Assembly: GCF_000738915.1 (NCBI RefSeq)
Contig: NW_026515636.1
Location: 335,175-399,174, forward strand
Source of the DNA: Nematocida ausubeli
Lineage: Eukaryota
Length of the DNA stretch: 64,000 nucleotides
Reading direction: 5' to 3'
The number at the start of each line of letters is the position of its first letter. The stretch's first letter is position 1. Both the position numbers and the translations under genes were made by a program. Under the pieces are notes generated by a model. That model made no database searches. It was given only the letters and a program-made list of their open reading frames with translations, and was not told where the DNA came from. Below, piece after piece: positions 47,760 to 48,345 of this stretch.

Positions 47760-48345
47760 CACAAAGGGCGGACACAGTACAGCAAGGCAGCAGGCAGATC
47801 GGGAGCGGCTGTTTATTAATAATAGCGTGTACCGGCCATGTACGGGCGCCATGTACTGCCTGCACACAGCACATCTTCGCTCGCTGCATACACATGTAGT
47901 GGTTAGCTGCTGCATATGCAGGGAGAGCGGCGTCTTGCGACTGGCCTGAGAACCCAGCGGCCCGCGCATGCTGCTGTTTGCCGGAGCGCTGCAGACAGCA
48001 CGGCAGGCCATCGCGCGCGCTGCGCAGAGGAGAGGGCCAGTCGGTGCTGAGGACAGGAGCAGGGAAGTCCAGTGCACGCATAGTTCAGTGCCACTTCGGC
48101 TTAGACAACGCAGCGGCTCTAAATATTAAATGTACAAGCATCAAGGTAAAAAGAACATGCGCGGAATTTCCTAATGACAAAGTTGGCATCCAAGCTACTC
48201 CATATGGCCTTATAGGCTACCCCGAAGGGAATGATAATAGTGGACGACCCACCGGCAGGGTTAGTGCCGGCTTGCTCCTGCCACCTCCTAGCCAGCCCTC
48301 TCCTGCTGCACTGCGCCGTGAGACAGATGCAGCTCTCCTGGTGTT
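47760..48345 (-). ncRNA. Candidate telomerase RNA (structured GC-rich ncRNA)
   Basis: GC-rich island without a credible ORF. Minus strand has CUAACCCU (48264-48257), long enclosing helices with G-U pairs, a CCC(UUCG)GGG hairpin (48229-48220), a three-way junction closed by 48010-48004/47948-47942, and an upstream TATTTAA (48375-48369). Confidence that it is an ncRNA is higher than confidence in the class. Confidence 0.55.

Follow-up and report, generated by a model that had tools for sequence, protein, structure and literature searches.

What does a GC-rich island in the genome of Nematocida ausubeli encode, and could its product be a telomerase RNA (TR)? An earlier note on this DNA had described helices and a template-like octamer on the minus strand of the island and had read it as a candidate TR of this lineage. 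We followed up this reading in the window, that is, the whole 64,000-nucleotide stretch in which the island lies. Our analysis reveals that the N. ausubeli locus 47799..48342 is a real, undescribed, multicopy structured RNA gene; what is solid is that about 10 dispersed genes form a family encoding a structured RNA which is abundant and had not been annotated. Among single roles, that of telomerase RNA is the most likely, a reading that we hold tentatively and at somewhat less than an even chance.

Genomic setting

That the window comes from N. ausubeli is borne out by proteins: a 967-aa protein encoded at 42908-45811 and the genes on either side of the island all cluster with proteins named for this species. 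The island was confirmed as GC-rich in AT-rich surroundings, with 57% GC and 34-37% in the flanks, and within the 64 kb, 300-nt windows of at least 52% GC were found in the island only. The two flanking genes carry consecutive locus tags in the ERTm2 annotation, so nothing is annotated between them, and they are split onto different contigs in all five named short-read assemblies (5/5).

As proposed earlier, the region was compared with other RNA families (RNase P/MRP, SRP, telomerase), and Rfam covariance models gave 0 matches over 47650-48420 at E up to 10. At gathering thresholds, the whole window gave no hit over the island and none elsewhere. SRP RNA, snRNAs, snoRNAs, rRNA and known ribozymes were rejected on the same absence of matches, and a tRNA because none was found by ARAGORN. 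The RNA is not an mRNA, since a stop comes only 2 codons behind its first ATG, and the open reading frames of greater length run off the RNA end without homologues: the 110-aa frame had six candidate homologues, none of which passed, and both it and a 100-aa frame are absent from the protein collection.

The transcript

Eight of the 22 listed sequencing runs were examined, with X13, X15 and X20 as the RNA-type runs. A discrete RNA contig was found at the locus in all three (3/3), representing two samples, as X13 and X15 are one sample. In X13 the contig spans 47799-48342 at a depth of 461 compared to 14.8 for the neighbouring mRNA (~31x), and in X15 it spans 47827-48331 at 301 compared to 9.7, contig depth being a poor abundance measure. 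X20, which is RNA on record and from another study, has a contig at 47855-48209 and is otherwise empty across 46.4-50 kb. X13 and X15 have no RNA label on record and were treated as RNA-type because 47368-47730 and most of the upstream repeat are uncovered in them, unlike in the DNA runs. The transcript and its signals are as follows.

47799..48342, minus strand (assigned from signals): non-coding RNA of about 545 nt, from RNA-type contigs, ends approximate
48369..48375, minus strand: TATTTAA, a TATA-like box lying 27-33 nt upstream of where the RNA contig ends
47812..47817, minus strand: poly(A) signal AAUAAA; the X13 contig's 3' end follows after 13 nt

Contigs give neither strand nor exact ends, and the strand was assigned from these signals. 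The upstream TATTTAA recorded earlier is indeed present (48375-48369, minus strand), and the X13 contig carries 7 unaligned letters beyond its AAUAAA-side end. The plus strand of 47500-48450 has no TATA and no AATAAA match. Since TATTTAA stands at one end and AAUAAA at the other, with neither on the plus strand, and since the RNA has a cUUCGg loop, we infer transcription from the minus strand; the claim of a discrete structured RNA gene on this strand, belonging to no Rfam family, is thus supported as the most likely one. An internal run of five U speaks for RNA polymerase II and against RNA polymerase III. RNA polymerase II is thus the likely enzyme for the minus-strand RNA of 47799..48342; initiation would fall ~30 nt past the TATA box, and cleavage would follow AAUAAA.

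Copy number and repeat unit

The earlier note had assumed an ordinary single locus. Instead, depth in DNA runs and contig breaks reveal one of about 8-12 near-identical dispersed copies.

47541..49185, no strand assigned: dispersed repeat unit of about 1.65 kb, present about 8-12 times per haploid genome, from contig breaks and depth; ends (47541, about 49185) placed to within about 20 nt
47691..48364, no strand assigned: near-invariant core (the RNA plus about 20 nt on its upstream side and about 110 nt on its downstream side), from depth and few differences

The core was 7.7-12.3x deeper than the flanking genes in 4/4 DNA runs covering the locus (X1, 11.5-12.2; X3, 7.7-9.4; X6, 12.2-12.3; X9, 9.2-12.2), and while contig depth is not a copy number, other signs of multiple copies agree. 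Unique contigs end at 47570 and resume at 49019-49056, and depth is back to baseline after about 49185. Flank positions are covered by up to 10 distinct contigs per run, and loose contig ends at 47541 reveal other flanks. X3 is not independent evidence, since it is identical to the window over 2.57 kb and may be the window's source. Run X22 had no contig at the locus, an absence that is no proof, and the window itself holds no second copy of the RNA.

In each run the core appears as a single contig or as two, showing 1-7 differences, its copies being about 99% alike within N. ausubeli, and the flanks are 80-95% alike. We infer from this conserved core with diverged flanks that selection or gene conversion has acted on the RNA, and not uniform decay. 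In X3 and X6, contigs are interrupted between 48116 and 48148 (at 48117 and about 48147), indicating that copies differ inside the candidate pseudoknot described below. Separately, X15 holds a low-depth contig at 48628-49106 from a diverged copy of the upstream module, and at least one such diverged module may thus be transcribed.

Contig of a second organism

One X1 contig matches 48103-48153 and joins a piece ending at 47751, a kind of joint that can arise from other organisms or repeats. In X9, where N. ausubeli stands at about 10x, foreign pieces match 48103-48153 at about 22,000x, 47703-47751 at about 11,000x and 46726-46772 at about 2,000x.

47703..47751, no strand assigned: segment beyond the RNA contig on its downstream side, to which the second organism's contig matches (joint 47751 to 48103 in X1; high-depth pieces in X9)

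E. coli gave no match for 48090-48200, and plasmids and phages gave short matches only (E 0.7-9), so these collections do not explain the contig. The piece at 46726-46772 belongs to the neighbouring gene, and the ratio of RNA piece to gene piece in X9, about 11, suggests another Nematocida species with similar copy number; the contig is a probable homologue from such a species. The best-conserved piece is the candidate pseudoknot region (48103-48153), in a comparison that covers only 51 + 49 nt of the second organism, the template region not being alignable at 80%.

Folding of the RNA

Every string on which the earlier note had built was recovered in place on the minus strand. Folding was more stable than in shuffles, the more so on the minus strand: the fold of 47900-48345 gave z values of -3.56 on the minus and -1.78 on the plus strand relative to shuffles, and that of the 544-nt transcript -2.63 and -2.08, respectively (60 shuffles each). 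Both helices proposed to enclose the core held up: that of 13 bp with two G-U (48304-48292/48040-48028) has pair probabilities of 0.74-1.0, and that of 10 bp with one G-U (48282-48273/48061-48052) of 0.33-1.0. The outer pairing 48338-48332/47928-47922 is predicted with a pair probability of 0.72, the UUCG hairpin is present at 48229-48220, and the U-rich UUCUUUUU is present at 48155-48148.

48028..48304, minus strand: core-enclosing helix (48304-48273 with 48061-48028), pair probabilities mostly 0.74-1.0

The 3' region, which holds a second CUAACC hairpin, has a fold no more stable than that of shuffles (z 0.15). Among internal direct repeats the best was not significant, being reached in 22/150 shuffles, and a 14-nt motif occurs in three spaced copies (repeat family D3).

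Candidate template

The following features concern the segment that would serve as template.

48257..48264, minus strand: candidate template CUAACCCU, 6 templating and 2 alignment bases for TTAGGG
48251..48271, minus strand: 7-bp hairpin closing the candidate template into a 7-nt loop, predicted with pair probability about 1.0
47900..47906, minus strand: second CUAACC motif in a predicted 7-nt loop, from folding and motif search

A TR template is complementary to about 1.3-2 copies of the telomere repeat. The TTAGGG-compatible octamer was found where the earlier note had placed it (48264-48257) and fits as 6+2; it lies 78 nt from the RNA 5' end, directly inside the core-enclosing helix, and the majority contigs of five runs (X1, X3, X6, X13, X15) keep it unchanged, their differences lying elsewhere. 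Any 8-nt TTAGGG template occurred in the 544-nt RNA in 88/5000 shuffles, and when five telomere repeat types were allowed, 1432/5000 shuffles held a template. Across the 64-kb window the 8-mer is not unusual (1 seen, 1.42 expected). A 20-nt template pattern was also tried in a metagenome scan and rejected, as its three loci were all chance matches without similarity beyond the pattern; viral contigs gave 0 matches.

The octamer is flanked by a perfect inverted repeat of 7 bp. An earlier caveat, that CCGGCA/UGCCGG might close the template into a hairpin loop, proved justified, for this hairpin is predicted with a probability of about 1.0, and the proposed extension of P1 right up to the template, which exists as sequence, loses to it. 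Forbidding the 7-bp hairpin would cost 8.7 kcal/mol in the folding model. The full TR-like fold reaches -201 to -204 kcal/mol, with -10.7 kcal/mol for the P3 duplex, and the free fold -223 kcal/mol; the open TR-like fold is roughly 9-11 kcal/mol worse even with P3 added, all before a pseudoknot penalty. A single-stranded template with a 5' boundary element is thus not what the folding predicts, although protein binding could change this. Two or more CUAACC motifs occurred in 25/5000 shuffles, and the presence of the second one in a similar loop may suggest a repeated binding motif.

Candidate pseudoknot and junction

Two elements downstream of the template were examined in detail.

48075..48176, minus strand: candidate pseudoknot, as drawn, with a P2b-like stem (48176-48167/48150-48139) and a P3-like stem (48163-48153/48086-48075, one bulged U)
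47942..48010, minus strand: CR4/5-like three-way junction as drawn earlier; predicted instead as one long and one short hairpin

No convincing pseudoknot could be built by eye in the earlier note. One resembling that of human TR can now be drawn, in the position that it has in telomerase RNA, but it fails an energy-only shuffle test (225/561 shuffles). Human P3 contains a bulged U. Here the P3-like stem has 11 bp with one bulged U and starts from the loop of the weak P2b-like hairpin, the duplex energies being -10.7 to -12.6 kcal/mol for the P3-like and -5.6 kcal/mol for the P2b-like stem. With UU in loop 1 and AA on the partnering strand, two U.A-U triples could form, and the far end of the pseudoknot reaches the 3' strand of the core-enclosing helix. 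In the second organism, the loose end of the contig turns one P2b-like mismatch into a pair, provided that the partner strand is unchanged. Under strict criteria, which were set after the pseudoknot had been seen, 186/11,901 shuffles pass; under looser ones, 975/13,009 and 3009/9982 do. The P3 5' strand pairs more strongly with 47973-47962 (-18.5 vs -12.6 kcal/mol).

The three-way junction of the CR4/5 type (P5/P6/P6.1) is not favoured. Its strings are present, but P5 and P6.1 have pair probabilities of at most 0.01, and forcing the junction makes the fold 5.3 kcal/mol worse. At 47942..48010 there is no A between P6 and P6.1, a residue given as invariant in vertebrate and fungal CR4/5 in the available text of PMC4993307.

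Among 3' biogenesis domains of the TR type (H/ACA, Sm, C/D, Pol III U-tail) none was found, and AAUAAA stands there instead. A lone ANANNA at 47977 is not accompanied by the two-hairpin layout of H/ACA RNAs, and no Sm site or C box lies inside the RNA by general motif patterns or those in the accessible part of PMC5499648. The AUAUUCCU stretch near 47750 had suggested the snR30/U17 motif, but this reading was dropped, since the RNA contig does not include the stretch and it is not followed by an H/ACA layout.

Possible functions of the RNA

As a telomerase RNA, the transcript would work as follows. A long helix would enclose the core. On binding of TERT, CCGGCAC would leave the local hairpin for the distal strand 48077-48069 and thereby open CUAACCCU, of which 6 bases would be copied as GGTTAG and 2 would realign the primer. 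The strand 48163-48153 would pair with 48086-48075 as the stem of a P3 pseudoknot with two U.A-U triples, and a second arm for TERT binding, in degenerate form, would lie at 48010-47942. Purifying selection or gene conversion would hold the copies alike, raising the RNA dose. The complete proposal, a first microsporidian TR made by ~10 dispersed, homogenised genes in more than one species, with a template hidden in a hairpin until TERT opens it, is an unlikely one. Of the earlier claims, the enclosing helix and the TTAGGG-fitting 8-mer stood, and the open template, the CR4/5 junction and the single locus were not supported. The copy number (about 8-12) and the depth of about 31x that of the neighbouring mRNA, high for a TR, also speak against it. 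The results on template hairpin, pseudoknot and junction weaken the TR reading without being fatal to it, because they are predictions from one sequence and microsporidian RNAs are divergent. Since several defining features were looked for and not found, we do not file the RNA in the telomerase RNA family.

The available literature bears on this reading in several ways. In the parts accessible, TTAGGG is described as the microsporidian state before G losses (PMC13174016), and the repeat as having shifted several times in Microsporidia (TTAGGG, TTAGG, TTAG and mixed TAGG; PMC13174016, PMC11592040). TERT has been reported in Encephalitozoon (PMC10158259, available text) and in Microsporidia sp. 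MB. Neither a Nematocida telomere repeat nor a Nematocida TERT was found in the literature searched, including the accessible portions of 10.64898/2026.01.30.702766, PMC11592040 and 10.1101/2025.05.12.652816, and telomerase terms had 0 hits in the readable supplements of PMC13174016. In the largely open-access literature searched, no microsporidian telomerase RNA turned up.

Close behind it in likelihood, and itself doubtful, comes a kind of RNA gene family that has not been described before, amplified for dosage and distinct from telomerase RNA. In this case a rod-like stem with side hairpins would act as an RNP scaffold or decoy, showing CUAACC in two 7-nt loops to an RNA-binding protein, and the telomere match would be incidental. 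It would account for 8-12 copies with a near-invariant core and diverged flanks, which is the pattern of multicopy RNA genes under selection, for the high RNA abundance, for the hairpin over the motif (probability about 1.0), for the two CUAACC (25/5000 shuffles), for the 14-nt motif in three spaced copies and for the similar copy ratio, about 11, of the second organism's matching piece. However, it leaves the order of helix, template and pseudoknot unexplained, its second CUAACC hairpin sits in a 3' region that folds like shuffles (z 0.15), and the best internal direct repeat is reached by 22/150 shuffles. Dispersal with differing flanks, as seen at the loose ends at 47541, might also come from the transcript of a non-autonomous mobile element or solo LTR (with promoter, R region and poly(A) signal), about 1.65 kb long, that would owe its spread to an enzyme with a gene elsewhere and its uniformity to gene conversion. 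TATA and AAUAAA in one unit, and a related upstream module at 31165-31517 (62% over 370 nt), fit such an element, which we nevertheless consider rather improbable. No terminal inverted or long terminal direct repeats are among those listed for the unit, no target-site duplication was seen by eye at 47541 and about 49185, and there is no A-tail at these DNA ends. The unit is not a retrocopy, since it extends past the RNA by 840 nt upstream and by 260 nt downstream; its divergence is uneven (core about 99%, flanks 80-95%); and the copy looks fixed, as the unique contig stops at 47570 in X1, X3 and X6, strains about 1.6% apart included.

The long-range duplex of -18.5 kcal/mol with 47973-47962 raises a further reading, that of a highly diverged RNase P or MRP RNA in which 5' and 3' ends form P1, GGAAAUUCCGCG is CR-I-like and the long-range pairing is P4-like. 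A match to the CR-I consensus pattern does occur at 48171. The pattern is broken in the second organism's loose end, there is no CR-V match, and only about 30 nt separate the P4-like strand from P1. Moreover, there is no Rfam match at E up to 10, though Encephalitozoon RNase P and MRP RNAs are in Rfam, and microsporidian P and MRP RNAs are described as reduced (PMC5499648, available part). This reading is very improbable. The likelihoods given to the four readings are judgement and were not computed.

If the telomerase RNA reading is true, it would bear on the ancestral layout of fungal and animal TRs, and it would be unusual for a TR to have 10 copies and a template that hides itself. Because the telomere repeat has changed more than once within Microsporidia, a single validated TR would provide a starting point for phylum-wide searches and make these shifts testable. 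If it is not a TR, what remains is a structured RNA, abundant and multicopy, that had not been described and that belongs to a parasite with few genes in the C. elegans model system. It represents a multicopy RNA gene that was collapsed by short-read assemblies and missed by annotation.

Comparison with known RNAs

As is likely for the RNA here, vertebrate TR is made by RNA polymerase II with a poly(A) precursor; it has its template inside a core-enclosing helix, as the candidate template lies here, and has a P2b/P3 pseudoknot, which here is drawable. Its size class is comparable, especially in rodents (397-451 nt; PMC12133305, available text), and some rodent TRs have a 2-nt alignment region as here (PMC4993307, available text). 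In contrast to vertebrate TR, the RNA here has no H/ACA domain, its junction lacks the invariant A and is not predicted, its candidate template is flanked by a perfect inverted repeat, and it is present in 8-12 copies. The TRs of filamentous fungi and of fission yeast are likewise of the Pol II type, with a 5' end that pairs with a distal 3' segment and a possible junction downstream of the core. Compared to these, the RNA here is much shorter, and no Sm site and no boundary hairpin adjoining the template 5' were found.

TR genes of plants (Mimulus, PMC10723376, accessible part) and bees (Andrena) have also been duplicated and moved to new sites. According to the same part of PMC10723376, Mimulus has two to three diverged TR paralogues, often with different templates, whereas here 8-12 copies are near-identical; TR duplications elsewhere are given as 'two or more' copies in the available text of PMC12133305. 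Non-coding RNAs of Encephalitozoon and Nosema have in common with the RNA here a TATA-like box and a CCC/GGG-like motif near the start. The set described in the accessible part of PMC5499648, from which this comparison is taken, comprises 18 RNAs (snRNAs, snoRNAs, RNase P, MRP and SRP), mostly shortened, and that part of the inventory contains no telomerase RNA (0 occurrences of the word) and nothing resembling the RNA here.

Other observations in the window

A second long intergenic locus, 31142-33000, shares only the upstream module of the repeat unit: 31165-31517 (plus) aligns with 49025-48676 (minus) at 62% over 370 nt (E 2e-15). The locus lacks TAACCC and is not homologous to the RNA. One unique contig of X3 appears to begin near 32957, and another repeat thus probably ends there. 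TATAAA at 32708 precedes a GC-richer stretch, and C-box-like and U1-like words lie near 31889-31907, with weak Rfam matches only.

Upstream of an 871-aa gene, 49352-49419 is another repeat, short and in part palindromic, whose flanks differ in several contigs; it is perhaps a promoter element used in common. At 1588-7578, two tandem paralogous genes of 922 and 905 aa show 78% DNA identity over 1.75 kb and belong to no Pfam family.
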